Shown: positions 4,915 to 34,737, counted from the first letter of the stretch. The stretch: DNA of 64,000 nucleotides from Escherichia coli (GCF_022846255.1 NZ_AP025682.1); one strand, 5' to 3'. Notes: generated by a model from the letters alone, not told the origin. Numbers and translations: made by a program.

Positions 4915-4952
4915 AAAAGTCGTATCATAAGATTTTTGTATATGGATGCATT

Positions 4953-5327
4953 ATGTCTCAATACGCTCACGCCGCTTTAATCGCTTATCATTTGGTTGCT
5001 GATAGCTCAATGCATCCTCGTGATGCATGGGATGCAGCTGTCGCAGAGGTTACGGAAAGCGAATCGTCAAGAAAGAAGATATGCCCACGGGCAACATTTC
5101 TCGCCCTGGCGGATAGCGGTTATCTGAAGAATGTAAAACCACAGCATGGGGAGAGAAAGGGCGGTAAGTTGTATCAAAGGGCAATTGAAGTTGCGAATCT
5201 GATTCTTGATTTACCCGGAATCAGCAAAGCGGAGTTAGTTGATAAAACTTGCTATAAAGACAGGCAAGGGTCTTATGACATTGCACTAACTCTCGCTCAG
5301 CACGGATTACTCCAGCGTCCTCAATAA
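4953..5327 (+). CDS. Hypothetical protein (124 aa) at the bor/moron position downstream of Rz
   Basis: ATG 4953 within ORF 4902..5327. No family recognised. Followed by a strong terminator. Confidence 0.6.
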   Translation: MSQYAHAALIAYHLVADSSMHPRDAWDAAVAEVTESESSRKKICPRATFLALADSGYLKNVKPQHGERKGGKLYQRAIEVANLILDLPGISKAELVDKTCYKDRQGSYDIALTLAQHGLLQRPQ

Positions 5328-5704: not shown

Positions 5705-5914
5705 ATGTCAGTAGCTGTTTTCGAGGCACTCAATGCACGTATTAACCAACTTGAAAGTAAGGTGAAGGAATACGAGCAGCGACAGGCTGAGGCAGATGAG
5801 AAGACTCAGAACGAACTTTTCCTGGAGTTTCTTGCCATCGTTCACGAACTGATGCCGTTAGTTAATCAGGCGCTGATGACAGGGCTGAAGGATGGAGATT
5901 TACACAGTAGGTAA
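5705..5914 (+). CDS. Small coiled-coil protein (69 aa) just upstream of cos; possibly YlcI-like
   Basis: GAGGT RBS 4 nt before ATG 5705. MSVAVFEALNARINQLESKVKEYEQRQAEADEKTQNELF.... Same position as ylcI, upstream of the Nu1 homologue in DLP12; the family call is from memory only. Confidence 0.45.
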   Translation: MSVAVFEALNARINQLESKVKEYEQRQAEADEKTQNELFLEFLAIVHELMPLVNQALMTGLKDGDLHSR

Positions 5915-5929
5915 ACCTGATCTTCTGTC

Positions 5930-6697: not shown

Positions 6698-10378
<3,681 letters not shown>

Positions 10379-14911: not shown

Positions 14912-15652
14912 ATGCCTGTACCAAATCCTACAATGCCGGTGAAAGGTGCCGGGACCACCCTGTGGGTTTATAAGGGGAGCGGTGACCCTTATGCGAACCC
15001 GCTTTCAGACGTTGACTGGTCGCGTCTGGCAAAAGTTAAAGACCTGACGCCCGGCGAACTGACCGCTGAGTCCTATGACGACAGCTATCTCGATGATGAA
15101 GATGCAGACTGGACTGCGACCGGGCAGGGGCAGAAATCTGCCGGAGATACCAGCTTCACGCTGGCGTGGATGCCCGGAGAGCAGGGGCAGCAGGCGCTGC
15201 TGGCGTGGTTTAATGAAGGTGATATCCGTGCCTATAAAATCCGCTTCCCGAACGGCACGGTCGATGTGTTCCGTGGCTGGGTCAGCAGTATCGGTAAGGC
15301 GGTGACGGCGAAGGAAGTGATTACCCGCACGGTGAAGGTCACCAATGTGGGACGTCCGTCGATGGCAGAAGATCGCAGCACGGTGACGGCGACAACCGGC
15401 ATGACGGTGACACCCGCCAGTGCTTCCGTAGTGAAAGGGCAGAGCACCACGCTGACCGTGGCATTCCAGCCGGAGGGCGCAACCGACAAGAGCTTCCGTG
15501 CGGTGTCTGCGGATAAAACAAAAGCCACCGTGTCGGTCAGTGGTATGACCATCACCGTGAAAGGTGTTGCTGCAGGCAAGGTCAACATTCCGGTCGTATC
15601 CGGTAATGGTGAACTTGCTGCGGTTGCAGAAATCAACGTCACCGCCAGTTAA
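14912..15652 (+). CDS. V: Major tail tube protein gpV (246 aa)
   Basis: ATG 14912 gives [31 protein letters not shown]..., including the C-terminal Ig-like domain. Confidence 0.96.
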
Positions 15653-15667
15653 TCCGGAGAGTCAGCG

Positions 15668-16506: not shown

Positions 16507-19060
16507 ACCGGTAGGCGATCTGGTCGTTGATTTGAGTCTGGATGCGGCCAGATTTGACGAGCAGATGGCCAGAGTCAGGCGTCATTTTTCCGGTACGGAA
16601 AGTGATGCGAAAAAAACAGCGGCAGTCGTTGAACAGTCGCTGAGCCGACAGGCACTGGCTGCACAGAAAGCGGGGATTTCCGTCGGGCAGTATAAAGCTG
16701 CCATGCGTATGCTGCCTGCGCAGTTCACCGACGTGGCCACGCAGCTTGCAGGCGGGCAAAGTCCGTGGCTGATCCTGCTGCAACAGGGGGGGCAGGTGAA
16801 GGACTCCTTCGGCGGGATGATCCCCATGTTCAGGGGGCTTGCCGGTGCGATCACCCTGCCGATGGTCGGGGCCACCTCGCTGGCGGTGGCGACCGGTGCG
16901 CTGGCGTATGCCTGGTATCAGGGCAACTCAACCCTGTCCGATTTCAACAAAACGCTGGTCCTTTCCGGCAATCAGTCGGGTCTGACGGCAGATCGCATGC
17001 TGGTCCTGTCCAGAGCCGGGCAGGCGGCAGGGCTGACGTTTAACCAGACCAGCGAGTCACTCAGCGCACTGGTTAAGGCGGGAGTAAGCGGTGAGGCTCA
17101 GATTGCATCCATCAGCCAGAGTGTGGCGCGTTTCTCCTCTGCATCCGGCGTGGAGGTGGACAAGGTCGCTGAAGCCTTCGGGAAGCTGACCACAGACCCG
17201 ACGTCAGGGCTGACAGCGATGGCACGCCAGTTCCATAACGTGACGACGGAGCAGATTGCGTATGTTGCTCAGTTGCAGCGTTCCGGCGATGAAGCCGGGG
17301 CATTGCAGGCGGCGAACGAGGCCGCGACGAAAGGGTTTGATGACCAGACCCGCCGCCTGAAAGAGAACATGGGTACGCTGGAGACCTGGGCAGACAGGAC
17401 AGCGCGGGCATTCAAATCCATGTGGGATGCGGTGCTGGATATTGGTCGTCCTGATACCGCGCAGGAGATGCTGATTAAGGCAGAGGCTGCGTTTAAGAAA
17501 GCGGACGACATCTGGAGTCTGCGCAAGGATGATTATTTTGTTAACGATGAAGCGCGGGCGCGTTACTGGGATGATCGTGAAAAGGCCCGTCTTGCGCTTG
17601 AAGCCGCGAGAAAGAAGGCTGAGCAGCAGAGTCAACAGGACAAAAATGCGCAGCAGCAGAGCGATACTGAAGCGTCACGGCTGAAATATACCGAAGAGGC
17701 GCAGAAGGCTTACGAACGGCTGCAGACGCCGCTGGAGAAATATACCGCCCGTCAGGAAGAACTGAACAAGGCACTGAAGGACGGGAAAATTCTGCAGGCA
17801 GATTACAACACGCTGATGGCGGCGGCGAAAAAGGACTATGAAGCGACGCTGAAAAAGCCGAAACAGTCCGGCGTGAAGGTGTCTGCGGGCGATCGTCAGG
17901 AAGACAGTGCTCATGCTGCCCTGCTGACGCTTCAGGCTGAACTCCGGACGCTGGAGAAGCATGCCGGAGCAAATGAGAAAATCAGCCAGCAGCGCCGGGA
18001 TTTGTGGAAGGCGGAGAGTCAGTTCGCGGTACTGGAGGAGGCGGCGCAACGTCGCCAGCTGTCTGTACAGGAGAAATCCCTGCTGGCGCATAAAGATGAG
18101 ACGCTGGAGTACAAACGCCAGCTGGCTGCACTTGGCGACAAGGTTACGTATCAGGAGCGCCTGAACGCGCTGGCGCAGCAGGCGGATAAATTCGCACAGC
18201 AACAACGGGCAAAACGGGCAGCCATTGAGGCGAAAAACCGGGGGCTGACTGACCGGCAGGCAGCGCGGGACGCCACGGAACAGCGCCTGAAGGAACAGTA
18301 TGGCGATAATCCTCTGGCGCTGAATAACGTCATGTCAGAGCAGAAAAAGACCTGGGCGGCTGAAGACCTGCTTCGCGGGAACTGGATGGCAGGCCTCAGG
18401 TCCGGCTGGAGCGAGTGGAAAGAGAGTGCCACGGACAGTATGTCGCAGGTTAAAAGTGCTGCCACGCAGACCTTTGATGGTATTGCGCATAATATGGCGG
18501 CGATGCTGACCGGCAGTGAGCAGAACTGGCGAAGCTTCACCCGTTCCGTGCTGTCCATGATGACAGAAATTCTGCTTAAGCAGGCAATGGTGGGGATTGT
18601 CGGGAGTATCGGCAGCGCCATTGGCGGGGCTGTTGGTGGCGGCGCATCCGCGTCAGGCGGTACAGCCATTCAGGCCGCTGCGGCGAAATTCCATTTTGCA
18701 ACCGGAGGATTTACGGGAACCGGCGGCAAATATGAGCCAGCGGGGATTGTTCACCGTGGTGAGTTTGTCTTCACGAAGGAGGCAACCAGCCGGATTGGTG
18801 TCGGCAACCTGTACCGCCTAATGCGGGGCTATGCGGAAGGTGGTTATGTGGGCGGTGCCGGAAGTCCGGCGCAGATGCGGCGGGCTGAAGGCATTAATTT
18901 TAATCAGAACAATCACGTGGTGATTCAGAACGACGGTACGAATGGTCTGCCAGGTCCACAGATGATGAAGGCAGTGTATGACATGGCCCGCAAGGGTGCC
19001 CGTGATGAAATTCAGACACAGATGCGTGATGGTGGCCTGTTCTCCGGAGGTGGACGATGA
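16499..19060 (+). CDS. H: Tape measure protein gpH (853 aa)
   Basis: Lambda H-like along its length; the last ~60 aa differ slightly. Confidence 0.96.
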   Translation: MAEPVGDLVVDLSLDAARFDEQMARVRRHFSGTESDAKKTAAVVEQSLSRQALAAQKAGISVGQYKAAMRMLPAQFTDVATQLAGGQSPWLILLQQGGQVKDSFGGMIPMFRGLAGAITLPMVGATSLAVATGALAYAWYQGNSTLSDFNKTLVLSGNQSGLTADRMLVLSRAGQAAGLTFNQTSESLSALVKAGVSGEAQIASISQSVARFSSASGVEVDKVAEAFGKLTTDPTSGLTAMARQFHNVTTEQIAYVAQLQRSGDEAGALQAANEAATKGFDDQTRRLKENMGTLETWADRTARAFKSMWDAVLDIGRPDTAQEMLIKAEAAFKKADDIWSLRKDDYFVNDEARARYWDDREKARLALEAARKKAEQQSQQDKNAQQQSDTEASRLKYTEEAQKAYERLQTPLEKYTARQEELNKALKDGKILQADYNTLMAAAKKDYEATLKKPKQSGVKVSAGDRQEDSAHAALLTLQAELRTLEKHAGANEKISQQRRDLWKAESQFAVLEEAAQRRQLSVQEKSLLAHKDETLEYKRQLAALGDKVTYQERLNALAQQADKFAQQQRAKRAAIEAKNRGLTDRQAARDATEQRLKEQYGDNPLALNNVMSEQKKTWAAEDLLRGNWMAGLRSGWSEWKESATDSMSQVKSAATQTFDGIAHNMAAMLTGSEQNWRSFTRSVLSMMTEILLKQAMVGIVGSIGSAIGGAVGGGASASGGTAIQAAAAKFHFATGGFTGTGGKYEPAGIVHRGEFVFTKEATSRIGVGNLYRLMRGYAEGGYVGGAGSPAQMRRAEGINFNQNNHVVIQNDGTNGLPGPQMMKAVYDMARKGARDEIQTQMRDGGLFSGGGR

Positions 19061-21462: not shown

Positions 21463-24400
21463 ATGGGTAAAGGCAGCAGTAAGGGGCATACCCCGCGCGA
21501 AGCGAAGGACAACCTGAAATCCACGCAGTTGCTGAGTGTGATTGATGCCATCAGTGAAGGGCCGGTTGAAGGTCCGGTGGATGGATTAAAAAGCGTGCTG
21601 CTGAACAGTACGCCGGTGCTGGACAGTGAGGGGAATACCAACATCTCCGGTGTCACGGTGGTGTTCCGGGCAGGTGAGCAGGAGCAGACACCGCCGGAGG
21701 GATTTGAATCCTCCGGTTCCGAGACGGTGCTGGGTACGGAAGTGAAATACGACACGCCGATCACCCGCACCATCACGTCGGCAAACATCGACCGTCTGCG
21801 CTTTACCTTCGGTGTGCAGGCACTGGTGGAAACCACCTCAAAGGGGGACAGGAATCCATCGGAAGTCCGCCTGCTGGTTCAGATACAACGTAACGGTGGC
21901 TGGGTGACGGAAAAAGACATCACCATTAAGGGCAAAACCACCTCGCAGTATCTGGCCTCGGTGGTGGTGGATAACCTGCCGCCGCGCCCGTTTAATATCC
22001 GGATGCGCAGGATGACGCCGGACAGCACCACAGACCAGCTGCAGAACAAAACGCTCTGGTCGTCATACACCGAAATCATCGATGTGAAACAGTGCTACCC
22101 GAACACGGCACTGGTCGGCGTGCAGGTGGATTCGGAGCAGTTCGGCAGCCAGCAGGTGAGCCGTAATTATCATCTGCGCGGGCGTATTCTGCAGGTGCCG
22201 TCGAACTATAACCCGCAGACGCGGCAATACAGCGGTATCTGGGACGGAACGTTTAAGCCAGCATACAGCAACAACATGGCCTGGTGTCTGTGGGATATGC
22301 TGACCCACCCGCGCTACGGCATGGGGAAACGTCTTGGTGCGGCAGATGTGGATAAATGGGCGCTGTATGTCATCGGCCAGTATTGCGACCAGTCAGTGCC
22401 GGACGGTTTTGGCGGCACGGAGCCGCGCATCACCTGTAATGCGTACCTGACCACACAGCGCAAGGCGTGGGATGTGCTCAGTGATTTCTGCTCGGCGATG
22501 CGCTGTATGCCGGTATGGAACGGGCAGACGCTGACGTTCGTGCAGGACCGACCGTCGGATAAGGTGTGGACCTATAACCGCAGTAATGTGGTGATGCCGG
22601 ATGATGGCGCGCCGTTCCGCTACAGCTTCAGCGCCCTGAAAGACCGCCATAATGCCGTTGAGGTGAACTGGATTGACCCGAACAACGGCTGGGAGACGGC
22701 GACAGAGCTTGTGGAGGACACGCAGGCCATTGCCCGTTACGGTCGTAACGTCACGAAGATGGATGCTTTTGGCTGTACCAGCCGGGGGCAGGCACACCGC
22801 GCCGGGCTGTGGCTGATTAAAACAGAACTGCTGGAAACGCAGACCGTGGACTTCAGCGTGGGCGCAGAAGGGCTTCGCCATGTGCCGGGCGATGTCATTG
22901 AAATCTGTGATGATGACTATGCCGGTATCAGCACCGGCGGGCGCGTGCTGGCGGTAAACAGCCAGACCCGGACGCTGACGCTCGACCGTGAAATCACGCT
23001 GCCATCCTCCGGCACCACGCTGATAAGCCTGGTTGACGGGCAGGGGAGTCCGGTCAGCGTGGAGGTCCAGTCCGTCACCGACGGTGTGAAGGTGAAAGTG
23101 AGCCGGGTTCCTGACGGAATAGCCGAATACAGCGTGTGGGGGCTGAAGCTGCCGACGCTGCGTCAGCGCCTGTTCCGCTGTGTGAGTATCCGTGAGAATG
23201 ATGACGGCACGTATGCCATCACCGCCGTGCAGCATGTACCGGAAAAAGAAGCCATCGTGGATAACGGGGCACACTTTGACGGCGACCGGAGCGGCACGGT
23301 GAATGGTGTCACGCCGCCAGCGGTGCAGCACCTGACCGCCGAAGTCATTGCAGACAGCGGGGAGTATCAGGTACTGGCCCGCTGGGACACGCCGAAGGTG
23401 GTGAAGGGCGTGAGCTTCCTGCTTCGCCTGACCGTGACAGCGGATGACGGCAGTGAGCGGCTGGTCAGCACGGCCCGGACGACGGAAACCACATACCGCT
23501 TCACACAACTGGCACCGGGGAACTACAGGCTGACAGTCCGGGCAGTAAATGCCCGGGGGCAGCAGGGAGACCCGGCGTCTGTATCGTTCCGGATTGCCGC
23601 ACCGGCAGCACCGTCGCGGATTGAGCTGACGCCGGGTTATTTTCAGATAACCGCCACGCCACATCTTGCGGTTTATGACCCGACGGTACAGTTTGAGTTC
23701 TGGTTTTCGGAAAAGCGGATTGCCGATATCCGGCAGGTTGAAACCACAGCGCGCTATCTTGGCACGGCGCTGTACTGGATAGCCGCCAGTATCAATATCA
23801 GGCCGGGCTATGATTATTATTTTTACGTTCGCAGTGTGAACACCGTTGGCAAATCTGCATTCGTGGAGGCTGTCGGTCAGGCGAGCGATGATGCGGAAGG
23901 TTACCTGGATTTTTTCAAAGGCAAGATAACCGAATCCCATCTCGGCAAGGAGCTGCTGGAAAAAGTCGAACTGACGGAGGGTAACGCCAGCAAACTGGAG
24001 GAGTTTTCGAAAGAGTGGAAGGACGCCATTGATAAATGGAATGCCATGTGGGGCGTCAAAATTGAGCAGACCAGAGACGGCAAACATTATGTCACGGGTA
24101 TTGGTCTCAGCATGGAGGACACGGTGAGCCAGTTTCTGGTTGCCGCTAACCGTATCGCGTTTATTGATCCGGCAAACGGGAATGAAACGCCGATGTTTGT
24201 GGCGCAGGGCAATCAGATATTCATGAACGACGTGTTCCTGAAACGCCTGACGGCCCCCACCATTACCAGTGGTGGAAATCCACCGGCATTTTCCCTGACA
24301 CCGGACGGAAAGCTGACTGCTAAAAATGCGGATATCAGTGGCAGTGTGAATGCGAACGCCGGGACGCTCAACAACGTCACGATAAATGAGAACTGTACGA

Positions 24401-24846
24401 TTAAAGGGAAACTGTCAGCCAATCAGATTGAAGGCGATATTGTCAAAACAGTGGGTAAGGCTTTCCCGCGGGATTCCCGTGCACCGGAGCAGTGGCCATC
24501 AGGGACCATTACCGTCAGAGTCTATGACGATCAGCCTTTTGACCGGCAAATTGTTATTCCCGCGGTGGCGTTTCGCGGAGCTAAACATGAGCGGGAGAAT
24601 AGCGATACTTATTCGTCATGCCGCCTGATAGTGAAGAAAAACGGTGCTGAAATTTATAACCGTACCGCACAGGATAGTACGCTGATTTATACAGGTGTTA
24701 TTGATATGCCTGCAGGCAGTGGCGTAATGACACTGGAGTTTTCTGTATCAGCATGGTGGGTAAATGGTTGGTATCCCACAGCAAGTATCAGCGATTTGCT
24801 GGTTGTGGTGATGAAGAAATCCACTGCAGGTATCACGATTAGCTGA
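21463..24846 (+). CDS. J: Central tail fibre / host-specificity protein gpJ (1127 aa) with a non-lambda C-terminal receptor-binding region
   Basis: Collinear with lambda J to about residue 980; after that the sequence is different and 5 aa shorter overall. Confidence 0.95.
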
Positions 24847-24865
24847 ATTTTATAACCCATATACG

Positions 24866-24889
24866 GGCGCCAGAAATGGCGCCTTTTTT
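24866..24889 (+). terminator. Rho-independent terminator after J
   Basis: GGCGCC-AGAAAT-GGCGCC followed by TTTTTT. Confidence 0.8.
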
Positions 24890-24913
24890 ATTGCAGAAAA
24901 GCGAGAGGTAATT

Positions 24914-25513
24914 ATGCGTAAAGTTTGTGCCGCCATTTTGTCCGCCGCCATCTGTCTGGTCGTATCCGGTGCGCCTGCATGGGCATCTGAGCAGCAGGCC
25001 ACGCTGAGCGCGGGGTATCTTCATGCCCGGACGACCGCTCCCGGTAGCGATAATCTGAACGGGATTAACGTGAAATACCGTTATGAATTTACGGACACGC
25101 TGGGGCTGATTACGTCCTTCAGTTATGCCGACGCCGAAGATGAACATAAAACGCATTACAGCGATACCCGCTGGCATGAAGATTCCGTGCGTAACCGCTG
25201 GTTCAGCGTAATGGCGGGGCCGTCTGTGCGTGTGAATGAATGGTTCAGTGCGTATGCGATGGGGGGTGTGGCTTACAGCCGTGTGTCGACTTTTTCCGGG
25301 GATTATCTCCGCGTAACTGACAACACGGGGAAAACGCACGATGTGCTGACCGGAAGTGATGACGGTCGCCACAGCAACACGTCTCTGGCGTGGGGGGCTG
25401 GCGTGCAGTTTAACCCGACCGAATCCGTGGCCATTGATATTGCTTATGAAGGCTCCGGCAGTGGTGACTGGCGCACTGACGGTTTCATCGTGGGTGTCGG
25501 TTATAAATTCTGA
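24914..25513 (+). CDS. lom: Lom/Ail-family outer-membrane protein (199 aa)
   Basis: Signal peptide, then beta-barrel repeats ending GFIVGVGYKF. Flanked by terminators, the classic lom moron. Confidence 0.92.
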   Translation: MRKVCAAILSAAICLVVSGAPAWASEQQATLSAGYLHARTTAPGSDNLNGINVKYRYEFTDTLGLITSFSYADAEDEHKTHYSDTRWHEDSVRNRWFSVMAGPSVRVNEWFSAYAMGGVAYSRVSTFSGDYLRVTDNTGKTHDVLTGSDDGRHSNTSLAWGAGVQFNPTESVAIDIAYEGSGSGDWRTDGFIVGVGYKF

Positions 25514-25540
25514 TTAGCCAGGTAACACAGTGTTATGACA

Positions 25541-25566
25541 GCCCGCCGGTTCAGGCGGGCTTTTTT
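25541..25566 (+). terminator. Rho-independent terminator after lom
   Basis: GCCCGCC-GGTTCAG-GGCGGGC followed by TTTTTT. Confidence 0.8.
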
Positions 25567-25577
25567 GTGGGGTGAAT

Positions 25578-28406
25578 ATGGCAGTAAAGATTTCAGGTGT
25601 CCTGAAAGACGGCACAGGAAAACCGGTACAGAACTGCACCATTCAACTGAAAGCCAGACGTAACAGCACCACGGTGGTGGTGAACACGGTGGCCTCTGAA
25701 AATCCGGATGAAGCCGGGCGTTACAGCATGGACGTTGAGTACGGTCAGTACAGCGTTATTCTGTTGGTGGAGGGGTTCCCGCCATCACATGCCGGGACTA
25801 TCACCGTGTATGAAGATTCTCAACCCGGTACGCTGAATGATTTTCTCGGTGCCATGACGGAGGATGATGCCCGTCCGGAGGCACTGCGCCGTTTTGAAGT
25901 GATGGTGGAAGAGGTGGCGCGTAACGCGTCCGCAGTGGCACAGAACACGGCAGCCGCGAAGAAGTCAGCCGGCGATGCCAGCACATCAGCCCGTGAGGCG
26001 GCAACCCATGCGACTGATGCTGCAGACTCAGCACGCGCAGCCAGCACGTCAGCCGGACAGGCCGTGTCGTCGGCTCAGTCAGCGTCTTCCAGCGCAGGAA
26101 CGGCATCAGCAAAGGCCACTGAAGCATCAAAAAGTGCTGCCGCTGCAGAGTCCTCAAAAAGCGCGGCGGCCACCAGTGCCGGTGCGGCAAAAACGTCAGA
26201 AACGAATGCTTCAGCGTCACAACAATCAGCAGCCACTTCTGCATCCACCGCGACTACGAAAGCGTCAGAAGCTGCCACCTCAGCCCGGGATGCGGCGGCC
26301 TCAAAAGAGGCAGCGAAATCATCAGAAACGAACGCATCCTCGAGCGCCAGTAGTTCCGCTTCCTCGGCAACGGCGGCAGGAAATTCCGCGAAGGCGGCAA
26401 AAACGTCCGAGACGAACGCCAGGTCTTCTGAGACGGCAGCGGGACAGAGCGCCTCAGCTGCGGCAGGCTCAAAAACAGCGGCTGCATCATCTGCCAGTGC
26501 CGCGTCAACAAGTGCCGGGCAGGCCTCAGCCAGTGCCACTGCCGCCGGAAAATCGGCAGAAAGCGCTGCATTGTCCGCTTCAACAGCCACAACGAAGGCT
26601 GGCGAAGCCGCTGAACAGGCCAGCGCAGCAGCGAGGTCTGCTTCCGCAGCGAAGACATCCGAAACGAACGCGAAAGCGTCGGAAACCAGCGCAGAATCCT
26701 CAAAAACGGCAGCCGCATCGTCCGCCAGTGCGGCGGCGTCATCGGCATCATCTGCGTCTGCTTCAAAAGATGAGGCGACCAGACAGGCGTCAGCAGCGAA
26801 GGACAGTGCCACGACGGCATCCACGAAGGCGACAGAGGCTGCTGGCAGTGCGACGGCGGCAGCACAGAGCAAAAGTACGGCAGAATCCGCCGCAACGCGC
26901 GCTGAGACAGCAGCAAAACGGGCAGAGGATATTGCATCCGCCGTGGCGCTTGAGGATGCAAGCACGACGAAAAAGGGGGTAGTACAGCTCAGCAGTGCGA
27001 CCAACAGCACTTCCGAGTCACTGGCGGCAACGCCAAAAGCCGTTAAGGCCGCGTATGACCTGGCTAACGGGAAATATACCGCTCAGGACGCTACGACAGC
27101 ACAAAAAGGAATTGTCCAGCTCAGTAGTGCAACCAACAGCGCATCTGAAACGCTTGCTGCGACATCGAAAGCAGTGAAAGCAGCTAATGACAATGCGAAT
27201 GGTCGGGTACCTTCTGCCCGTAAGGTGAATGGTAAGGCGCTTTCAGCGGATATAACACTGACACCGAAAGATATTGGTACGCTTAACTCAACAACTATGT
27301 CATTCAGCGGTGGTGCTGGTTGGTTCAAATTAGCAACGGTAACCATGCCGCAGGCGAGTTCTGTTGTTTCAATTACGTTGATTGGTGGGGCTGGATATAA
27401 CGTCGGTTCACCTCAACAGGCAGGTATATCTGAACTTGTTTTGCGTGCAGGTAATGGTAATCCGAAGGGGATTACTGGTGCTTTATGGCAGCGCACATCG
27501 GCAGGGTTTACAAATTTTGCCTGGGTCAATACATCTGGTGATACTTACGATATTTACGTTGCAATCGGAAATTATGCGACTGGTGTAAATATTCAATGGG
27601 ATTATACCAGTAATGCCAGCGTAACGATTCATACGTCACCAGCATATTCTGCTAATAAGCCGGAAGGGTTAACGGACGGTACAGTTTATTCACTCTATAC
27701 GCCATCAGAGCAGTTTTATCCGCCTGGCGCACCAATCCCGTGGCCATCGGATACCGTTCCGTCTGGTTATGCCCTGATGCAGGGGCAGACTTTTGACAAA
27801 TCTGCCTACCCGAAACTTGCAGTCGCTTATCCGTCAGGCGTGATCCCTGATATGCGTGGCTGGACGATTAAGGGCAAGCCCGCCAGTGGTCGTGCCGTAT
27901 TGTCTCAGGAGCAGGACGGCATTAAATCGCACACCCACAGCGCCAGCGCATCCAGTACGGATATGGGTACGAAAACCACATCGTCGTTTGATTACGGCAC
28001 TAAATCCACGAATAACACCGGGGCGCATACGCACAGTCTGAGCGGCTCTACAAGCTCGGCCGGAGCACACTCGCACGTTGATGGTCGCAGGTTTAATACA
28101 AGCACTTTTAAAGACACCTATCAGTATGGTTCTACAGCTGTCGGAAGTAACTCATACCAGGTACAAGGGGCGGTTGGTCTGGGCATTGGCACGATGGCGA
28201 ATACGAACTCTGCTGGCGCGCATACCCACTCACTGTCCGGCACTGCTGCAAGCGCAGGTGCACACGCACATACTGTCGGTATTGGTGCTCATACGCACTC
28301 CGTTGCGATTGGCTCACATGGACACACCATCACCGTTAACGCTGCTGGTAACGCGGAAAACACCGTCAAAAACATCGCATTTAACTATATTGTGAGGCTT
28401 GCATAA
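25578..28406 (+). CDS. stf: Side tail fibre Stf (942 aa), mosaic
   Basis: The N-terminus [32 protein letters not shown] and the C-terminus ...[18 protein letters not shown] match lambda Stf. It has a long Ala/Ser-rich repeat, two tandem KKG(V/I)VQLSSATNS repeats and a middle domain that is not lambda's. Confidence 0.93.
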
Positions 28407-28990
28407 TGGCATTCAGAATGAGTGAACAAGCACGGACCATAAAAATTTATAATCTGCTGGCCGGAACTAATGAATTTATTGGTGAAGGTGACGCATATAT
28501 TCCGCCTCATACAGGTCTGCCAGCAAACAGTACCGATATTGCACCACCAGATATTCCTGCTGGCTTTGTGGCTGTTTTCAACAGTGATGAGGCATCGTGG
28601 CATCTCGTTGAAGACCATCGGGGTAAAACGGTTTATGACGTAGCGTCAGGGGACGAGTTATTTATTTCTGAACTCGGTCCGTTACCGGAAAATGTTACCT
28701 GGTTATCGCCGGAAGGGGAGTTTCAGAAGTGGAACGGCACAGCCTGGGTGAAAGATGCAGAAGCAGAAAAACTGTTCCGGATCCGGGAGGCGGAAGAAAC
28801 AAAAAACAGCCTGATGCAGGTAGCCAGTGAGCATATTGCGCCACTTCAGGATGCTGTAGATCTGGAAATCGCAACGGAGGAAGAAACCTCATTGCTGGAA
28901 GCCTGGAAAAAGTATCGGGTGTTGCTGAACCGTGTTGATACATCAACTGCACCTGATATTGAGTGGCCTACGAACCCTGTCAGGGAGTAA
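28406..28990 (+). CDS. tfa: Tail fibre assembly protein Tfa (194 aa)
   Basis: [44 protein letters not shown]... matches lambda Tfa. Confidence 0.95.
28825..28968 (+). repeat. Direct repeat copy 1 (144 bp, tfa 3' end)
   Basis: Aligns without gaps to 29874-30017 with about a dozen mismatches. Confidence 0.9.
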
Positions 28991-29004
28991 TCATTGGGAT
29001 TATG

Positions 29005-29037
29005 CCGCAGCACGTCTTAAGCAAGAACGTGCTGCGG
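29005..29037. terminator. 11-bp perfect hairpin between convergent tfa and the methyltransferase gene
   Basis: CCGCAGCACGT-loop-ACGTGCTGCGG; a related hairpin recurs at 30054-30088. Confidence 0.6.
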
Positions 29038-29044
29038 TTGGATG

Positions 29045-29713
29045 CTATTTTTTCCCTGAAGCGGAAAACATTACTACAGTACCTTGAACCTTGGTTTTAA
29101 CATTCTCGAAATGCTCTGAGAGTATATGTGTTAAGCCTTCTTCGGAATCTTTTGTGTTTGAAAAGATGCCTTTCTGATTGTAAATGCGCATCAGTTTTTG
29201 ACCGAAGCTATTGTGCACAACTCCATCGCCAAGAATTGTGGCTCCGTATAGAGTTCCATCGTCAGTTAAGGCCTGCGCCGCATTGCGTATTACACAGCTT
29301 TTTGTAGATATATTTCCAGGCAGACAGTGAAGAAGGTAAAACATGGAAATGGAATCAAATTGACCATGTAACGCCGCGGGATAAGGTTCAAAAACATCAT
29401 GGTTAATTTTATGTTTAATTTTTGATTCCCCAGCCCTTGTAGATGCCGCGTTCAGGCTAGCTTCGTTCAAATCCATTAAAGATATCAGACTACTCTCAGG
29501 TACGTGAGTAAGGTAAAACCCAGTTCCAACACCAATATCCAGATGGTTGTTACCTAAATGTTCCAGAAAGTGTGGAAGAAGGTGTTCCTTTGTAGGACAT
29601 CCCCATGCAAGCCGATTTGATACTCCCAAAACCCACCAGTCATAAAGCTTTAGGGTAAGTGGTGTGTAAATTTTAGCCCCATCATCTGTGTTTTTTTTCA
29701 TTAATTTCACCAT
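29045..29713 (-). CDS. Class I SAM-dependent methyltransferase, small-molecule type (222 aa; alternative start at 29701)
   Basis: Motif I HLDIGVGTGFYL, post-I LMDLN, motif II FDSISMFYLLHCLP, motif III LTDDGTLYGATI. No DPPY/NPPY or PCQ DNA-methyltransferase motifs. The second ATG has the better GGTGA RBS. Confidence 0.8.
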   Translation of the reverse strand: MVKLMKKNTDDGAKIYTPLTLKLYDWWVLGVSNRLAWGCPTKEHLLPHFLEHLGNNHLDIGVGTGFYLTHVPESSLISLMDLNEASLNAASTRAGESKIKHKINHDVFEPYPAALHGQFDSISMFYLLHCLPGNISTKSCVIRNAAQALTDDGTLYGATILGDGVVHNSFGQKLMRIYNQKGIFSNTKDSEEGLTHILSEHFENVKTKVQGTVVMFSASGKK

Positions 29714-29769
29714 GTTATAGTTTTATTTGTGAATTAAATCAATTATGGCGATGAATTACAAGGGGTTAA

Positions 29770-30039
29770 ATGCTGCCGCAGCATAGCGATATTGAAATAG
29801 CCTGGTATGCTTCGATACAGCAGGAGCCGAATGGCTGGAAGACCGTCACCACACAGTTCTACATCCAGGAATTCAGTGAGTATATTGCGCCACTGCAGGA
29901 TGCTGTAGATCTGGAAATCGCAACGGAGGAAGAAAGATCGTTGCTGGAGGCATGGAATAAATATCGGGTGTTGCTGAACCGTGTTGATACATCAACTGCA
30001 CCTGATATTGAGTGGCCGGAAGAACCAGACACAATGTAA
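29770..30039 (+). CDS. Chimeric Tfa C-terminal fragment (89 aa)
   Basis: AAGGGG RBS precedes the ATG. The last ~50 aa ([35 protein letters not shown]) duplicate the Tfa C-terminus; the first ~37 aa are unrelated. Confidence 0.5.
29874..30017 (+). repeat. Direct repeat copy 2 (144 bp, inside the tfa-fragment ORF)
   Basis: Aligns to 28825-28968; the two copies bracket the methyltransferase gene. Confidence 0.9.
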
Positions 30040-30376
30040 GCGAAAAAGAAAAACCGCAGACACGACGTATGCAGGACGTGCTGCGGTTGGCTGGTGAACT
30101 TTCGATAGTGCGAGTATTGAATGATTTCCAGCCGTTACCGATTTTACGTATTTTTTGTATGGGAGGATTTGCATCTCCTCCCACCGATCCTCCATGACTT
30201 TACGCCACAGTCTCTAGGACTGCTATGTGCCAATAGCAGACATCCACACAATTATGTAAAATAGGCTAGTGAGTCAGCATTCATGTAGTTCAGACCATCT
30301 ATAGCTGAAATCACGATCGCTTAACAGTGATTCACTCATAACTGCTAGCGAGCAATGTTCTTGTTTGAACCTCAAA

Positions 30377-30405
30377 TTGAAACCACAAAATCGAAAGGTT
30401 AAATA
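30377..30405 (+). promoter_or_regulatory. Candidate sigma70 promoter of the 479-aa cargo gene
   Basis: TTGAAA, a 17-nt spacer, then TAAATA. A GAAGG SD lies at 30422-30426, 7 nt before ATG 30434. Confidence 0.4.
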
Positions 30406-30433
30406 ATCGATTATCCAAATAGAAGGCAATTCA

Positions 30434-31873
30434 ATGGGAAATCACGATTTTATTAAATATATTATATTATTTGGCTTGTCTGGGATAATGTTGGCTATGC
30501 TAGTGCTCTTTATTTCCTCTGTAGCATATTATTTTTTCACCCATAATAAAGGAGTTCTTCAGTATATAATTAAAACTATTTCCATAGGCCTTGTAACTAT
30601 TCCAGTCGCAATAATACTAATCGTTGCACTCGTCCATTATGTTGTCTGGCAAAAAGGGATTTCAACGGCATGGCGTTTTATATTCCACTCGACTAAAACA
30701 ACAACCGTGAATGATATTGCTAATGCTGAATCAGAAGATGTTATTGTTCACCTTGTTCATGGAACATTCGAGACGAATGCATCTTGGACACAACCTGAGT
30801 CAAAAATGTGCAAATCAATTAACTCAAGGAATCCCAATATTGGTATATCTCGATTTAAATGGGATGGCAAAAACTCTGCATCCTCTCGTAAACAAGCGGC
30901 ATATCAATTAGGAATGCATATTGATAACTCTCCTGCAAAATACAATTATATTATTGCACATAGCCATGGGGCAGCTATTGTAAGAGAAATGTCTTATTTA
31001 CGAAGTGATATTGCAAAAAAAATTCAAGGCGTATGTCTTTTGTCACCACCGTTCATCTTTCGACGTAGGATAAAAAGAACGTCAGGTACTTTAATTAATC
31101 TTATTGATATTAGCGGAACTTTGGCCATTCAATTGTTACTTGCAGCACTTTTTGTACCTTTGAATCTATATAATATTAATTATGCAGCAGTAATTTTTTT
31201 TGTTTCAATATTTGCAGAAATTATAATCTCCAAAAAATATAAAAAAGAATTTTTGCAGGAAGTTGAGAGTGGCGAGCACTGTGAAGCGGTTGATTTTAGG
31301 AATGTTGAAATTTATCACGCAATTGGTGATGAAGCCGATTCAGGCCTAAGATTTGTAAGTTCACTTCACGAAGGATGTTTTTCAATTCTTTCCCAGCTAA
31401 AAAAAGCTCAAGTAAGTCATAAAAAGCTAACACATTGGTCAGCAGTTTTAAGCTACCTATTTTATATTTCCATGAGTGTATTAATATGGTTCTTCTATCC
31501 TGAAGAAAAATCATGGATTATAGTATTATTAGTAAGCTTTGTATTAACTTCTATTTCTCACATTTGGCAAAGGTTGAAACCATCAAAGGATGTTCCTCAT
31601 GTTTTACTTATTGCAGCAATACCAGTTGCGATTTTTTCATTTTGGTTGGCTGTAGCTAAGGCCATAGCTTATGGAGATTTGCGATTAATATTTTGCCCGG
31701 AAGTTTTTATTGCATCATCTGAAACTCCAGCTGGAGATCATAAAGTTATTAAATTTGCTCCACAGAATGATGGTATATTAATACACTCAACACACTCGCA
31801 TCCGGAGGCTATAATTAATGTTTCTGAATGGTTATATTGCTCTGAGAATAAAAGGGTAAATGGTGAACCATAG
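30434..31873 (+). CDS. Polytopic membrane protein with alpha/beta-hydrolase (lipase/esterase-like) serine-hydrolase motifs (479 aa); function unknown
   Basis: About 7 hydrophobic helices. Motifs VIVHLVHGTF (HG), IIAHSHGAAIV (nucleophile elbow), VEIYHAIGDEAD (acid strand) and a His-rich tail HSTHSHPE. AT-rich, with its own promoter/SD and downstream hairpins. Confidence 0.75.
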   Translation: MGNHDFIKYIILFGLSGIMLAMLVLFISSVAYYFFTHNKGVLQYIIKTISIGLVTIPVAIILIVALVHYVVWQKGISTAWRFIFHSTKTTTVNDIANAESEDVIVHLVHGTFETNASWTQPESKMCKSINSRNPNIGISRFKWDGKNSASSRKQAAYQLGMHIDNSPAKYNYIIAHSHGAAIVREMSYLRSDIAKKIQGVCLLSPPFIFRRRIKRTSGTLINLIDISGTLAIQLLLAALFVPLNLYNINYAAVIFFVSIFAEIIISKKYKKEFLQEVESGEHCEAVDFRNVEIYHAIGDEADSGLRFVSSLHEGCFSILSQLKKAQVSHKKLTHWSAVLSYLFYISMSVLIWFFYPEEKSWIIVLLVSFVLTSISHIWQRLKPSKDVPHVLLIAAIPVAIFSFWLAVAKAIAYGDLRLIFCPEVFIASSETPAGDHKVIKFAPQNDGILIHSTHSHPEAIINVSEWLYCSENKRVNGEP

Positions 31874-31910
31874 ATTAATATAACCACCATAAATTAATTT
31901 GTAATATACT

Positions 31911-31931
31911 TCCCTGCTAAATTCGCAGGGG
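31911..31931 (+). terminator. Weak hairpin downstream of the cargo gene
   Basis: CCCTGC-TAAATTC-GCAGGG with no clear T tract. Confidence 0.3.
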
Positions 31932-31943
31932 AGTATAAAAATA

Positions 31944-31977
31944 TACTAACTCAGTGGAGTCTTGTGCTGAGTTAGTA
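31944..31977. other. 11-bp perfect-stem hairpin (12-nt loop) of unknown role
   Basis: TACTAACTCAG-TGGAGTCTTGTG-CTGAGTTAGTA with no T tract on either strand. Confidence 0.5.
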
Positions 31978-32335
31978 CATGTTAACAAGATATTTATTCA
32001 CCACTAAATAATTAGCTAGAACAATAAGAATAATTTTGGGCAGTAAAGACAGGATGTAAACTACACTTATTCCAGTATGTTGGTTATCGTAGTTATATAT
32101 GATGAGCTCTAAAGTCCGCTTCTCGCTCATAACAGACATTCACTACAGTTATAGTAGAAGGTATGCATGCTGAGTGGGGAAAGTGTGAAAGAAAAGAAGA
32201 CTGCTGCGTCGTTTGTCGTCACGTTTATCTTCATTGGTTATGCAAGTAGTAATACAAGATGGGACAAAACTGAGGCACACATAGCTTTGTACTGGATTGC
32301 TAGGCTTTGTGCTCTTCGATAGTGGTTAAGGTGGA

Positions 32336-33493
32336 TCACTCCACCTTTTCATCAATCCAGTCCGCCCACCATTGCATCATTTCTCTGCGTTTATCGAGAT
32401 ACTGAGCATGGTTGTAAATCCCACGCACAGATCCGCCGTTGGCATGTGCCAGTTGCACTTCAATAGCGTCAGCAGGCCATTCGTGCTCGTTCATAATTGT
32501 GCTGAATTCATGCCTGAATCCGTGACCGCTTTCCAGACCCTCATAGCCGATTTGTTTGATCACAAGCAATACCGCGTTCTCGCAGATTGGCTTCTTCTTA
32601 TCGTTGCGCCCGGCAAAAACAAACTCTGATACTGGTTTAGTGATGGAGCTTAGCGTAGTGAGAAGTTCAACCACCTGGTCTGACATAGGAACAACATGAA
32701 TCTTGCGGCCCTTCATCACACTGGCGTCGATAGTGATAATCCTGTTTTCAAAATCGACGTTCTTCCATTGCATGGAGCGAAGCTCTTTCGTTCTTAGGGC
32801 TGTGTAGCGTAAAACTTTGGTCGCAATGAGCGATATGATGCTTCCTGAAAATGTTGCCAGTGCTTTGTTGAATGCAGGGATCTGGTCTGCTGGGAGAAAC
32901 GGGAAGTTCTTCTTGCGGTATCCCTTCATGGCGTCAGCAAGGTCAGGTGCCGGGTTATATTTAGCCCTACCAGTGACAATAGCGTAACGGAAAACCTCGC
33001 CGCATCTTCTGCGGGCTTTGTTGGCTCGCTCCATTGCACCGCGATCTTCAAATCTGCGGATTACTTCCAGCAGTTGCATCGGCTCAATATCCTGAATTTC
33101 AAGGCCGCCGATGATAGGTAAAATGTCGTCATCAAACATTTTTGCAAGTTCAGTTGCATAGCCTACTGACCAGACTTGCTTCTTGTGCTCGTACCATTCC
33201 TTGTAAATCGCACTAAAGGAATTGTTGTTAGACGAAGCCTTTTTCGCTTTTACCGGATCGATGCCAACCGAGATGTCTTTCCTCGCGGTCCATGCTTTAT
33301 CTCTTGCCTCCTGCAAAGTCATTAGCGGATATTTTCCTACGGTCAGGATTTTCTCCTTACCGTCAATCTTGTAGCGAAGCTGCCATACCTTTTTCCCTGA
33401 CACAGGGACATAAAGGTACAGGCCATTACCATCGAGTAGGCGGTATGGTTTTTCTTTCGGCTTTGCTGCTTCAATCTGCTTAACGGTGAGCAT
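32336..33493 (-). CDS. intS: Tyrosine integrase IntS (KplE1/CPS-53 type, 385 aa)
   Basis: ATG 33493 gives MLTVKQIEAAKPKEKPYRLLDGNGLYLYVPVSGKKVWQLRYK.... Near-identical to my recollection of K-12 IntS; the C-terminal catalytic region has HGFRH and an RGIYNH tyrosine region. Confidence 0.95.
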   Translation of the reverse strand: MLTVKQIEAAKPKEKPYRLLDGNGLYLYVPVSGKKVWQLRYKIDGKEKILTVGKYPLMTLQEARDKAWTARKDISVGIDPVKAKKASSNNNSFSAIYKEWYEHKKQVWSVGYATELAKMFDDDILPIIGGLEIQDIEPMQLLEVIRRFEDRGAMERANKARRRCGEVFRYAIVTGRAKYNPAPDLADAMKGYRKKNFPFLPADQIPAFNKALATFSGSIISLIATKVLRYTALRTKELRSMQWKNVDFENRIITIDASVMKGRKIHVVPMSDQVVELLTTLSSITKPVSEFVFAGRNDKKKPICENAVLLVIKQIGYEGLESGHGFRHEFSTIMNEHEWPADAIEVQLAHANGGSVRGIYNHAQYLDKRREMMQWWADWIDEKVE

Positions 33494-33654
33494 GGGTAAA
33501 AATCCGGTGGGTAAAATTATTTTATCCACTTTTTACCCGTCATGGAGTGCGGCTGTCAACGATCTGACGCGAACCATTACGAACTGTGAATCTACGGAAG
33601 GCTTGATATTCAGGGGATTTTGCGGACTGGTACGGATGGGAGCGAACTGATAAA
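33494..33654. promoter_or_regulatory. attL arm and intS promoter region
   Basis: Lies between the intS start and the argW 3' end. GGGTAAAA occurs at 33494-33501 and 33509-16, with an inverted TTTTACCC at 33531-38; these are candidate recombinase/RDF binding repeats. Confidence 0.5.
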
Positions 33655-33729
33655 TGGTGTCCCCTGCAGGAATCGAACCTGCAATTAGCCCTTAGGAGGG
33701 GCTCGTTATATCCATTTAACTAAGAGGAC
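33655..33729 (-). tRNA. argW: tRNA-Arg (anticodon CCU)
   Basis: The reverse complement reads GTCCTCTTAGTTAAATGGATATAACGAGCCCCTCCTAAGGGCTAATTGCAGGTTCGATTCCTGCAGGGGACACCA: 75 nt, cloverleaf-compatible, CCA end. Confidence 0.95.
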
Positions 33730-33804
33730 AATGCGGCATGAGTATACCCGCTAATGGACTACGGAGTAAGTACACAGCCGCTCGATTGCTTAAACCCTCG
33801 CCAT

Positions 33805-34737
33805 TTATGCCGGGTTTTTATCATTTTTCTTAATGTTTTCCGCACGTTCTGCTTTTTGGCGTGCTTCTGCTTTGCGCTTGTTGCTCATGTCGTTACGAAT
33901 CTGTGCATGACTCATTAACGCGAAGATAAAGGTGCCGCCGCAGATGTTCCCCGCTAAAGTAGGTAGTGCGAAGGGCCAGATGAAATCGCTCCAGTGCAGC
34001 GTACCGTTAAACACCAGATAGAGGATTTCTACAGAACCGACAACGATGTGGGTGGTGTCACCCAGGGCAATAAGCCAGGTCATCAATATAATCACCACAA
34101 TCTTTGCCGCACCCGCTGCAGGAAACATCCATACCATAGTGGCGATCAGCCAGCCGGAAATGATCGCGTTGGCAAACATCTCGCTGGGGGTGTTCTTCAT
34201 CACATCCATGCCGATTTTGACAAATGCATCGCGAGTTTCTTCATTGAAGATTGGCATATATTCAAATGCCCACGCCGCAATACCTGTCCCGAGAATATTA
34301 CCCAGCAGCACGACGCCCCATAACCGCATAAGTAAGCCAACGTTGCTCATTGTCGGTTTTTGCATGACGGGTAGTACCGCAGTCACGGTGTTTTCGGTAA
34401 ATAATTGCTGGCGGGCCATAATGACGATAATAAAACCAAAGGTATAACCGAGATTCTCCAGCAAGAAGCTGCCCGGCACACCTTCCAGTTCGACATGAAA
34501 TATCCCTTTTGCCAGTAATGAAGCGCCCATCGACAGGCCCGCCGCAATGGCTGACCACAGTAGCGCCATTGCGTCGCGTTCCAGCTCTTTTTCACCATCC
34601 TGGCGGATATGCTCATGAATTGCCATCGCCCGGGAGGGGAGTCGGTCTTCATCTATTTCTATTTTTTTGCCGCGCTCTTTTTCTTCGCTCTCAACTTCAA
34701 TTTCGTCGCTGTGTTGATCAATTTTGTCGTTGTCCAT
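33805..34737 (-). CDS. yfdC: Inner-membrane protein YfdC (formate/nitrite transporter family, 310 aa)
   Basis: Full-length ORF; synteny argW-yfdC-mlaA as in K-12. Confidence 0.93.
   Translation of the reverse strand: MDNDKIDQHSDEIEVESEEKERGKKIEIDEDRLPSRAMAIHEHIRQDGEKELERDAMALLWSAIAAGLSMGASLLAKGIFHVELEGVPGSFLLENLGYTFGFIIVIMARQQLFTENTVTAVLPVMQKPTMSNVGLLMRLWGVVLLGNILGTGIAAWAFEYMPIFNEETRDAFVKIGMDVMKNTPSEMFANAIISGWLIATMVWMFPAAGAAKIVVIILMTWLIALGDTTHIVVGSVEILYLVFNGTLHWSDFIWPFALPTLAGNICGGTFIFALMSHAQIRNDMSNKRKAEARQKAERAENIKKNDKNPA

Follow-up and report, generated by a model that had tools for sequence, protein, structure and literature searches.

The variable, non-essential b-region of lambdoid phages and the idea of the moron are textbook knowledge, and the moron concept of these phages reportedly goes back to Juhala and Hendrix in 2000. 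Here we compare systems of this kind with the b-region of a lambdoid prophage in Escherichia coli (GCF_022846255.1 NZ_AP025682.1), contained in a stretch of 64,000 nucleotides (nt) that we call the window, in which two accessory inserts (slot 1 and slot 2) alternate with conserved non-coding linkers (a hairpin, T, and the junctions J2 and J3) and in which slot 2 is edged by two short inverted sequences, the left (L) and right (R) arms. The b-region of lambda itself shares with this locus the position between the tail-fibre assembly gene tfa and the integration module, the linkers T, J2 and J3, the AT-rich and non-essential accessory genes and, for ea31–ea59, the location between the same two arms, whereas its cargo and its integrase are others, the window having an integrase of IntS type, a tRNA-Arg site and an int gene on the b-region side of the attachment site (att). 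Morons are defined by a promoter and a terminator of their own, whereas consensus scans of the window, set against shuffled sequence, returned no more than the latter would yield (promoter-like sites numbered 8, with 11.3 expected, and terminator-like sites 2, with 2.3 expected), and the strong hairpins T1 and T2 belong to the linkers; the proposal of the initial annotation that the inserts are independently transcribed accordingly found no support in these scans. To our knowledge, morons have not been described as having inverted arms.

In the Z/fun locus of P2, the same arms surround AT-rich cargos of 1–6 kb that often carry defence or toxin domains, and one cassette is shared with the window at 99.6% identity; the backbone, in contrast, is that of an unrelated myovirus, with the cassette lying between the tail-fibre assembly gene G and the sheath gene FI, and the arms of P2 are distinguished by an additional outer inverted repeat, perfect over 12 nt, and by an L arm that makes the better palindrome. 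The hotspots of P2 have been published (PMC9122126, PMC9519451, PMC13586616): the fun locus was described as the second defence hotspot of this phage (Vassallo et al. 2022, PMC9519451), and a 2026 survey of P2/P4 hotspots, which also lists Z/fun, called the exchange mechanism between P2 and non-P2 prophages unknown (PMC13586616). No mention of repeats, palindromes or terminators at the borders, or of cassettes common to the lambda b-region and P2 Z/fun, was found in these P2 hotspot papers; the P2 repeats may already have been described in older work (Nilsson et al. 2004).

Short intergenic stem-loop motifs also flank variable genes in the PeSL cassettes of T4-type phages, where they are proposed drivers of modular shuffling (Arbiol et al. 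2010, PMC2839356); they differ from the arms in phage group and in sequence, and they carry an early promoter, whereas none is shown at the arms. The attC cassettes of integrons resemble slot 2 in being small cargos delimited by imperfect palindromes, with tandem units that meet at a composite palindromic junction. Slot 2, however, comes without IntI, without the R/L box consensus (GTTRRRY) and without a uniform orientation, its crossovers vary, no empty or attI-like site was found for it, and the only recombinase in the window is a phage-type integrase with an arm-binding domain (Pfam), which sets the locus outside the integrons. Repetitive extragenic palindromic (REP) sequences and the bacterial interspersed mosaic elements (BIME) built from them have in common with the arms that they are imperfect palindromes of 24–28 nt, arranged as inverted doublets with a short spacer, in intergenic positions downstream of ordinary genes. 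In contrast to them, the arms are not spread genome-wide in E. coli (a median of three places with any J2 or J3 piece), and their sequence is presumably unlike the E. coli REP consensus. The locus is a hotspot of a known kind whose boundary element is apparently undescribed.

The borders of slot 2 and a cassette shared with P2

Slot 2 is a discrete cassette edged by two inverted, imperfect arms of 24 nt. In contigs containing a conserved J2 18-mer, whose ends were aligned, all loci are alike at the left edge through ...CTAGGACTGCTATGTGCCA-nn-AGCGGAC and diverge completely thereafter, and at the right edge all of them are divergent up to (GT)CCGCT-nn-TCGCTCATAACAGACATTCACTACAGTTATGG. The arms are imperfect inverted copies of each other, agreeing at 16/20 positions when GCTATGTGCCAAAAGCGGAC is set against the reverse complement GTTATGAGCGAGAAGCGGAC; the left one has the form GyCyGC-TmTGTGCCArrA-GCrGAC and the right one that of its imperfect reverse complement. 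The corresponding arms of lambda lie at 24327–24349 and 27322–27345, around ea31–ea59. At least 13 unrelated slot 2 cargos were found in lambda-like contigs. The J2-to-J3 distance varies (959, 1194, 1402, 2096, 2265 and 2955 nt), and pooling lambda-like and P2-like loci, gathered by regular expressions for the arm cores, gave 55 cassette instances in 37 distinct cargo clusters. Mean pairwise identity among these 37 cargos falls from 0.67–0.94 in the arms to 0.25–0.28 within about 25 nt on the cargo side, and each cargo consists of one to three unrelated genes in either orientation. The view of the initial annotation that the region is a cassette-exchange hotspot was borne out by these 37 cargos with their sharp breakpoints and by the at least six states in which slot 1 occurs.

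The cassette of the window also recurs in a second phage family. Window positions 30222–32137 are 99.6% identical over 1916 nt to positions 7001–8916 of contig L108 from strain TB06052, which was the sole match among 5426 E. coli genomes. The prophage that holds this copy is P2-like, with the tail-fibre assembly gene on one side of the cassette and the tail sheath gene on the other, which is the Z/fun position; the limits of the shared segment coincide exactly with the arms. P2-like loci have their arms prolonged by the perfect 12-nt outer inverted repeat AATCTGACAGTC; a scan of IMG/VR for this motif returned more than 120 contigs, of which those with both copies hold cargos of 1.0–5.9 kb, and in reference P2 the arms are located at 15335–15358 and 17432–17455, around fun(Z). 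Two cargos occur in both P2-type and lambda-type backbones, namely the 1912-bp cassette of the window and another of 1722 bp, and their crossover points within the arm differ, lying left of (outside) GCTATGTGCC for the former and near AGCGGAC for the latter. No empty P2-type site was found in the P2-like contigs of IMG/VR with two gapped patterns, and an artificial query joining the J2 end to the J3 start detected no intact empty slot 2 site in the 5426 E. coli genomes, but only a deletion fusion in which GCTATG is joined to TATGCTGA. Breakpoints are also located elsewhere: in strain CEA224S, divergence runs from inside tfa', the remnant of a second tfa allele (29994), to inside J3 (32223), and the divergent block carries an OmpT homologue and a TAP-like hydrolase, so that the arms are preferred, not exclusive, crossover sites.

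Some sites hold tandem cassettes (L191, L224 and L231 among the P2-like contigs, L009 and L104 among the lambda-like ones), and the internal junction is then composed of an R arm, a spacer of about 25 nt and an L arm (...CGCTCATAGCTGACATTCAGCTCAATTAACTCGTCCGCTTTGTGCC...), a doublet layout as in the chromosomal repeats of Erwinia and Pantoea described below. In P2 (L363), the annotated rho-independent terminator of the V operon (15639–15666) lies inside the fun(Z) cassette and outside the conserved backbone, and each cargo may therefore need to supply the terminator of the upstream late operon.

Relatives of the arms were also detected in bacterial chromosomes. A search for the 19-nt core of the L arm, with one genome per species, gave at least 120 matches where about 35 are expected by chance (own arithmetic), and many of these matches form a complete palindrome, with (AT)GTCCGC, a 12-nt loop and GCGGAC(AT). 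Units of R type and L type pair as doublets about 40 nt apart, and such doublets, seen in 8-kb stretches that were chosen for containing the motif, lie between ordinary genes in Erwinia, Pantoea, Rahnella and a Pseudolabrys metagenome-assembled genome (MAG). Their neighbours in Erwinia and Pantoea encode regulators of the AraC, LysR and ArsR types, LysE, a phytase-like protein and DinB. In E. coli, pieces homologous to J2 or J3 are present in 5386/5426 genomes, the median of three places counting any piece, with no requirement for arms or for a prophage location. Folded as single strands, the P2-type L arm reaches −9.2 kcal/mol (z −3.9) and the chromosomal versions −8.8 kcal/mol (z −4.8), and the L arm of the window folds differently (z −2.2). 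Repeats of the REP/BIME type are distributed like these chromosomal doublets, and the arms would belong to a REP/BIME-like family of palindromes; their persistence is probably due to the mobility of the cassettes that bear them, with insulation or termination of transcription as a further possible reason.

The Pseudolabrys MAG (contig L310, e.g. 1089–1160, 4642–4760 and 5809–5920), and likewise contigs L256 and L303, contain clusters of two to three hairpins, which have one stem in common (ATGTCCGC/GCGGACAT) and loops of three types; the clusters are located between paralogous genes for ABC substrate-binding proteins. One of the loop types (TTTGTGCCAAAA) is identical to the phage L arm, and this alphaproteobacterial repeat has at least 24 nt in common with the enterobacterial phage element.

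Layout of the region, its linkers and slot 1

According to the listing of open reading frames (ORFs) in 27500–34000, ARAGORN and Pfam, we are dealing with a lambdoid prophage whose integrase, of IntS type, lies beside tRNA-Arg(CCU), and its gene order of stf (25572–28406), tfa, integrase and tRNA-Arg is that expected of a lambdoid b-region. The features are, in window coordinates:

25572–28406: stf, the long side tail-fibre gene, upstream of tfa
28406–28990, plus strand: tfa, tail-fibre assembly, 194 amino acids (aa), left border of the b-region (Pfam Caudo_TAP, E 2.7e-45; DNA 93% identical to lambda tfa)
29005–29037: hairpin T1 (CCGCAG...CTGCGG), between the convergent tfa and methyltransferase genes, the left copy of a duplicated hairpin (fold −16.3 kcal/mol, z −6.4)
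29045–29713, minus strand: slot 1 cargo, class-I S-adenosylmethionine-dependent methyltransferase, 222 aa (Pfam Methyltransf_12/23/25/11; phrog_2132)
29770–30039, plus strand: tfa', 89-aa remnant of a second tfa allele (Caudo_TAP match, profile positions 75–130)
30054–30231: J2, conserved non-coding junction with lambda homology, which opens with hairpin T2 and closes in the L arm
30054–30086: hairpin T2, at the start of J2 (fold −13.4 kcal/mol, z −4.3)
30218–30241: L arm (GACTGCTATGTGCCAATAGCAGAC), left edge of the slot 2 cassette, where the shared sequence ends in all compared loci
30222–32137, plus strand: portable cassette, the segment in common with the P2-like prophage of E. coli TB06052
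30434–31873, plus strand: slot 2 cargo, predicted membrane alpha/beta (serine) hydrolase, 479 aa (conserved motifs, AlphaFold model)
32087–32313: J3, conserved non-coding junction with lambda homology, adjoining the integration module
32114–32137: R arm (GTCCGCTTCTCGCTCATAACAGAC), right edge of the slot 2 cassette and inverted imperfect copy of the L arm, immediately left of which the compared loci all diverge
32336–33529, minus strand: IntS-type tyrosine integrase, right border of the b-region (Pfam Arm-DNA-bind_3, Phage_int_M, Phage_integrase; intS in homologous loci)
33655–33729, minus strand: tRNA-Arg(CCU), integration site at the prophage end (ARAGORN; Rfam tRNA)

In homologous E. coli loci, intS has yfdC and mlaA as its neighbouring genes, which identifies the region as a lambdoid b-region at the tRNA-Arg(CCU) site. 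The GC content is 0.30–0.37 in the 479-aa cassette and 0.38–0.44 in the methyltransferase gene against 0.45–0.50 in the flanks, so both inserts are AT-rich as initially described. A perfect hairpin, GGTGGA-TCAC-TCCACC followed by TTTT (32330–32346), overlaps the stop codon of the integrase gene and, from its sequence, would terminate rightward transcripts from the cassette and J3.

The comparison of window 28400–33600 with lambda (NC_001416, 18000–30000) by blastn gave five matches. J2 (30054–30231) aligns with lambda 24162–24340 at 87.7% identity over 179 nt (E 1.5e-59), and J3 (32087–32313) with lambda 27295–27510 at 77.2% over 232 nt (E 6.8e-45); tfa with its hairpin (28400–29039) aligns with 21967–22608 at 93%, window 29863–30017 with 22381–22535 at 89.7% as a second copy of the tfa 3' end, and window 29004–29044 additionally with 24161–24202. 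Lambda is annotated with ea47 at 22686–23918, ea31 at 24509–25399, ea59 at 25396–26973, the first Int-binding site at 27583 and the att core at 27724–27738, which puts J2 between ea47 and ea31 and J3 between ea59 and sib/attP. Both homologies had been recognized in the initial annotation, which placed J2 within a few bases and let J3 begin about 28 nt later than the 32087 found here, and the slot contents differ from those of lambda as it had claimed, with the methyltransferase in place of ea47 and the 479-aa gene in place of ea31–ea59. The similarity of J3 stops right where the tI/sib hairpin of lambda begins, which we take to be ATTAGCGCAAG...CTTGCGCTAATTTTTT.

J2 is present in 196 phage records and complete in 41. 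Of its length, just the first ~100 nt (T2 and about 60 nt; window 30054–30160) remain in HK97, HK106, phi80, phiP27 and many Stx phages, sometimes adjoining dinI, and this shortening points to a further recurrent breakpoint in the middle of J2. J3 adjoins the integration module whatever the type of integrase, be it lambda int, IntS or, in contig L110, a tRNA-type att. In L110 (E. coli LD22-1, 4948–5268), the end of an e14-like element shows J2 and J3 fused by a deletion at TATG and followed by a tRNA-3'-like att; the element contains pinE, a gene for a GIY-YIG protein, and a Dcm methyltransferase together with a type II restriction enzyme. The J2/J3 linkers therefore serve at least three kinds of integration module.

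A coding explanation of J3 was set aside, and a structural one was considered. A 51-aa ORF (32167–32322) is out of frame with its lambda counterpart, the frames differing between lambda and the window because of indels of 2 and 16 nt, and RNAalifold on eight sequences gave a covariation term of −1.1 kcal/mol, which is uninformative as the sequences are too similar. A scan of 28300–33800 against Rfam with E up to 1 matched no family over J2, J3 or the arms; at 28974–29036, where tfa ends and T1 lies, CssrB was matched weakly and below threshold (32.6 bits, the gathering score being 76). The Rfam family IS009 ('sRNA gene') matched the 3' half of tfa (28749–28947) with 229 bits and tfa' (29793–29996) with 115 bits, the latter just below the gathering score, and what this family represents seems to be part of the coding sequence of tail-fibre assembly genes.

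Slot 1 is bounded by repeats of another kind. The last 155 nt of tfa (28814–28968) recur at 29863–30017 with 92% identity and a spacing of 1049 nt (direct repeat D1), the hairpin recurring with them at this spacing, and a duplicated hairpin also flanks ea47 in lambda (22573–22606 and 24162–24195), T1 matching both copies. A full-length tfa allele with the 3' end of tfa' was found in contig L091. The slot is empty, with tfa followed by T and J2, in at least ten contigs (L019, L037, L038, L048, L067, L080, L086, L091, L093 and L105), and it is filled by ea47 in lambda, by sitABCD in Lambda_2E9, by a DUF2971 (PDC-S31) and DUF4236 pair in L104, by a Pin-type invertase in L107 and by the methyltransferase in the window, which makes at least six states including the empty one. 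In the window, slot 1 is most likely the product of a tail-fibre module swap, since the 89-aa ORF corresponds to the 3' end of a different tfa allele: the swap would have brought in stf, tfa, T1 and the methyltransferase gene, leaving over the 3' end of the prior tfa with its hairpin T2.

The methyltransferase exceeds the cut-off for Methyltransf_12 (39.2 bits against 30) and for Methyltransf_23, 25 and 11, and no DNA-methyltransferase family was matched in Pfam. Against PADLOC it matched mad2 only (E 7e-4), a generic match to the methyltransferase fold, and no credible defence family. With its presence in 3835/5426 complete E. coli genomes (71%), the gene is a near-constant partner of the tfa allele of the window, not a rare swapped defence gene; it is a widespread accessory gene and not of defence type. 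Contig L095 (10599–10760, compared with window 29037–29800) is without exactly the methyltransferase ORF, with ...ACATTACTACAGT joined directly to TATGACGATGAAT.... A kinship of the left flank of the methyltransferase with the start of J3, in the form of a common 17-mer, ACATT(C)ACTACAGTTAT, located around the L095 join, was also tried, and its score of 27, equal to the best of 300 shuffles, was not significant.

Possible functions of the cargo

The slot 2 pool of 54 ORFs from the 37 cargos was scanned for known families, and the following are raw match counts. ATPases of the PtuA, GajA and AriA types and NsnB are represented by three members each, and McrBC, DarT, Macro, AbiGi, RES, RelA_SpoT, S_4TM and a Cap15-type receptor by one member each, DarT coming together with the Macro domain; nucleases associated with pPIWI were also present. 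Within lambda, Ea59 matched the PADLOC families PtuA (E 5e-184) and PDC-M01A (E 4e-201) and Ea31 matched PDC-M01B (E 6e-113), by which the ea59–ea31 pair is Septu-like; no statement that this pair is of Septu type was found in the literature searched.

The 479-aa protein of the window matched no family in PADLOC 2.0, PHROG or NCBIfam, and in Pfam it reached 19 bits for Ser_hydrolase, below the gathering score of 22. Its family is small, with 58 clusters, mostly from Enterobacterales and Burkholderia, and the motifs HGTF, AHSHG (with Ser177), GDEAD and HSTHS vary little or not at all among 33 homologues. The AlphaFold model (pLDDT 84.6) has a split alpha/beta-hydrolase core and long helices that are consistent with membrane spans, and Foldseek on this model returned thioesterases, lipases and esterases as weak matches (best E 3.6e-4, TM 0.24–0.41). 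From these models the protein is an alpha/beta (serine) hydrolase with predicted catalysis, and a membrane-acting effector is plausible. Only its location makes it a candidate exclusion or defence effector, against which stands the lack of any PADLOC match. A relation to the 494-aa alpha/beta hydrolase that fills the CEA224S slot was considered and discarded (BLASTP E 3.8).

The suggestion in the initial annotation that the cargo is of defence type holds in part: the slot 2 pool is rich in defence and toxin–antitoxin domains and lambda contributes its Septu-like pair with PtuA and PDC-M01 matches, whereas neither window gene matches a defence family, PADLOC giving nothing for the 479-aa protein and the tfa' remnant and only the generic mad2 match for the methyltransferase. 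A defence reading is fair for slot 2 as a class and unproven for both genes of the window.

Exchange of cargo and competing explanations

We consider it probable that the b-region consists of two accessory slots with the conserved linkers T, J2 and J3, that cargo is replaced by short-homology recombination at arms and linkers, and that both cargos of the window are accessory. Cargo would be replaced, not inserted and excised, in exchanges between co-resident or co-infecting phages, with the arms and the longer J2 and J3 serving as short patches of homology; J2 and J3 would provide such homology between lambdoid phages, and the arms would do so elsewhere too. The likely enzymes would be phage functions of Red/RecT type or RecA of the host. 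Replacement is preferred to insertion and excision because no empty sites were found, crossover points vary, cargo occurs in either orientation and no recombinase travels with it.

Several points weigh against this explanation. The mechanism is deduced from end products, with no recombination event observed; homology of 10–24 nt is very short for RecA and marginal even for Red/RecT, and the sharp breakpoints would equally fit a dedicated enzyme. An inverted repeat could not be upheld from the window alone, where the complementarity of L and R is at the chance level of AT-rich DNA; the evidence for the arms is therefore entirely comparative, the pair in the window being no better than many chance inverted repeats. 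The identity of 0.91–0.94 in the core bins is partly circular, because the set was picked by arm-core patterns, from which the neighbouring bins and the edge alignments are exempt. Phage-type R arms showed no folding on their own, and no linked changes were detected at any stem position among 299 distinct arms (Fisher p 0.49–1.0), so that the arms are established as a conserved dyad and not as a structure.

A dedicated enzyme is a serious rival to replacement by short homology, although on balance we regard it as unlikely. The arms would then be recognition sites of a site-specific or structure-specific recombinase, comparable to integron attC, pdif/Xer or REP/RAYT-like systems, and cassettes would be cut and pasted as units. 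Such an enzyme would account for the extremely sharp boundaries and the dyad symmetry of the arms, for the good single-strand folding of the P2-type L arm and the chromosomal versions, and for the presence of one element in two phage families with unrelated flanks. The same mismatches between arms recur in P2-type and lambda-type versions compared by eye, and tandem cassettes with R-spacer-L doublets recall cassette arrays. Site-specific recombination at variable P2 loci is also what Nilsson and co-workers are reported to have argued in 2004. Yet no candidate recombinase travels with the cassettes and lambda and P2 have none in common; the two shared cargos differ in crossover position, searches for empty sites found none, cargo genes are oriented either way, the arms are without the integron R/L box pattern (GTTRRRY), and neither stem covariation nor folding of the phage R arms supports a recognized structure.

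We think it rather improbable that no special mechanism operates at all, with J2, J3 and the arms kept as regulatory DNA or RNA (terminators, insulators or the retro-regulation of int beside sib) and with the diversity of cargo arising from ordinary illegitimate recombination under selection that leaves these regulatory pieces intact, as in the classical picture of moron accretion. It is true that T1 and T2 are strong hairpins at gene ends, that J3 is always beside the integration module with any type of integrase, that J2 is itself a mosaic of which many phages keep only the first ~100 nt, and that breakpoints outside the arms occur, as in CEA224S. Illegitimate recombination, however, would not be expected to deliver identical segments of 1.9 kb and 1.7 kb, arms included, to two unrelated backbones, nor to give 37 cargos whose ends all fall at one set of ~24-nt arms, and the supposed function of J3 is itself unproven, as this junction has no conserved coding frame, no detectable structural covariation and no Rfam family.

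It is hardly credible that an error of assembly or annotation produced the arrangement and that the resemblance at the junctions is an incidental lambda-derived remnant. None of the 5426 complete E. coli genomes carries 28400–33800 at ≥80% coverage, and public contigs with the 479-aa gene break 270–430 nt upstream of it, near the repeated J2, but the exact 479-aa protein with the J3-IntS-yfdC-mlaA context is found on 16 independent short public contigs from several projects, the left part (tfa, methyltransferase, tfa' and J2) is common in other contigs, and junction E-values of 1e-59 and 7e-45 exclude chance.

Going beyond replacement in the b-region, we tentatively put forward, as a possibility and with more doubt than conviction, that the ~24-nt palindromic arms form a family that acts as a universal adaptor for gene capture and for cassette swaps between unrelated temperate phages. 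This family would be related to the REP/BIME-like repeats of Erwiniaceae, Yersiniaceae and some Alphaproteobacteria, and its sites would include the lambda b-region, P2 Z/fun and the ends of e14-like elements.

Temperate phages keep a large store of anti-phage defence and virulence genes in their variable accessory regions, to whose description the present analysis adds a boundary element and a cassette common to two phage families. Both textbook accessory loci, ea31–ea59 of lambda and fun/Z of P2, have the same short inverted arms as their limits, and at least two cassettes have crossed between lambda-like and P2-like families exactly at these arms. The arms allow the automatic delimitation of cassettes, the mining of defence candidates, such as the 479-aa family, and genetic tests of exchange. 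Should they prove to be ordinary linkers, a clean map of the lambdoid b-region hotspot and its occupants would still result. If, on the other hand, they do act as adaptors, the passage of defence genes between P2-like and non-P2 prophages would be accounted for, and any chromosomal gene located between two such repeats would be pre-packaged for uptake by a phage.

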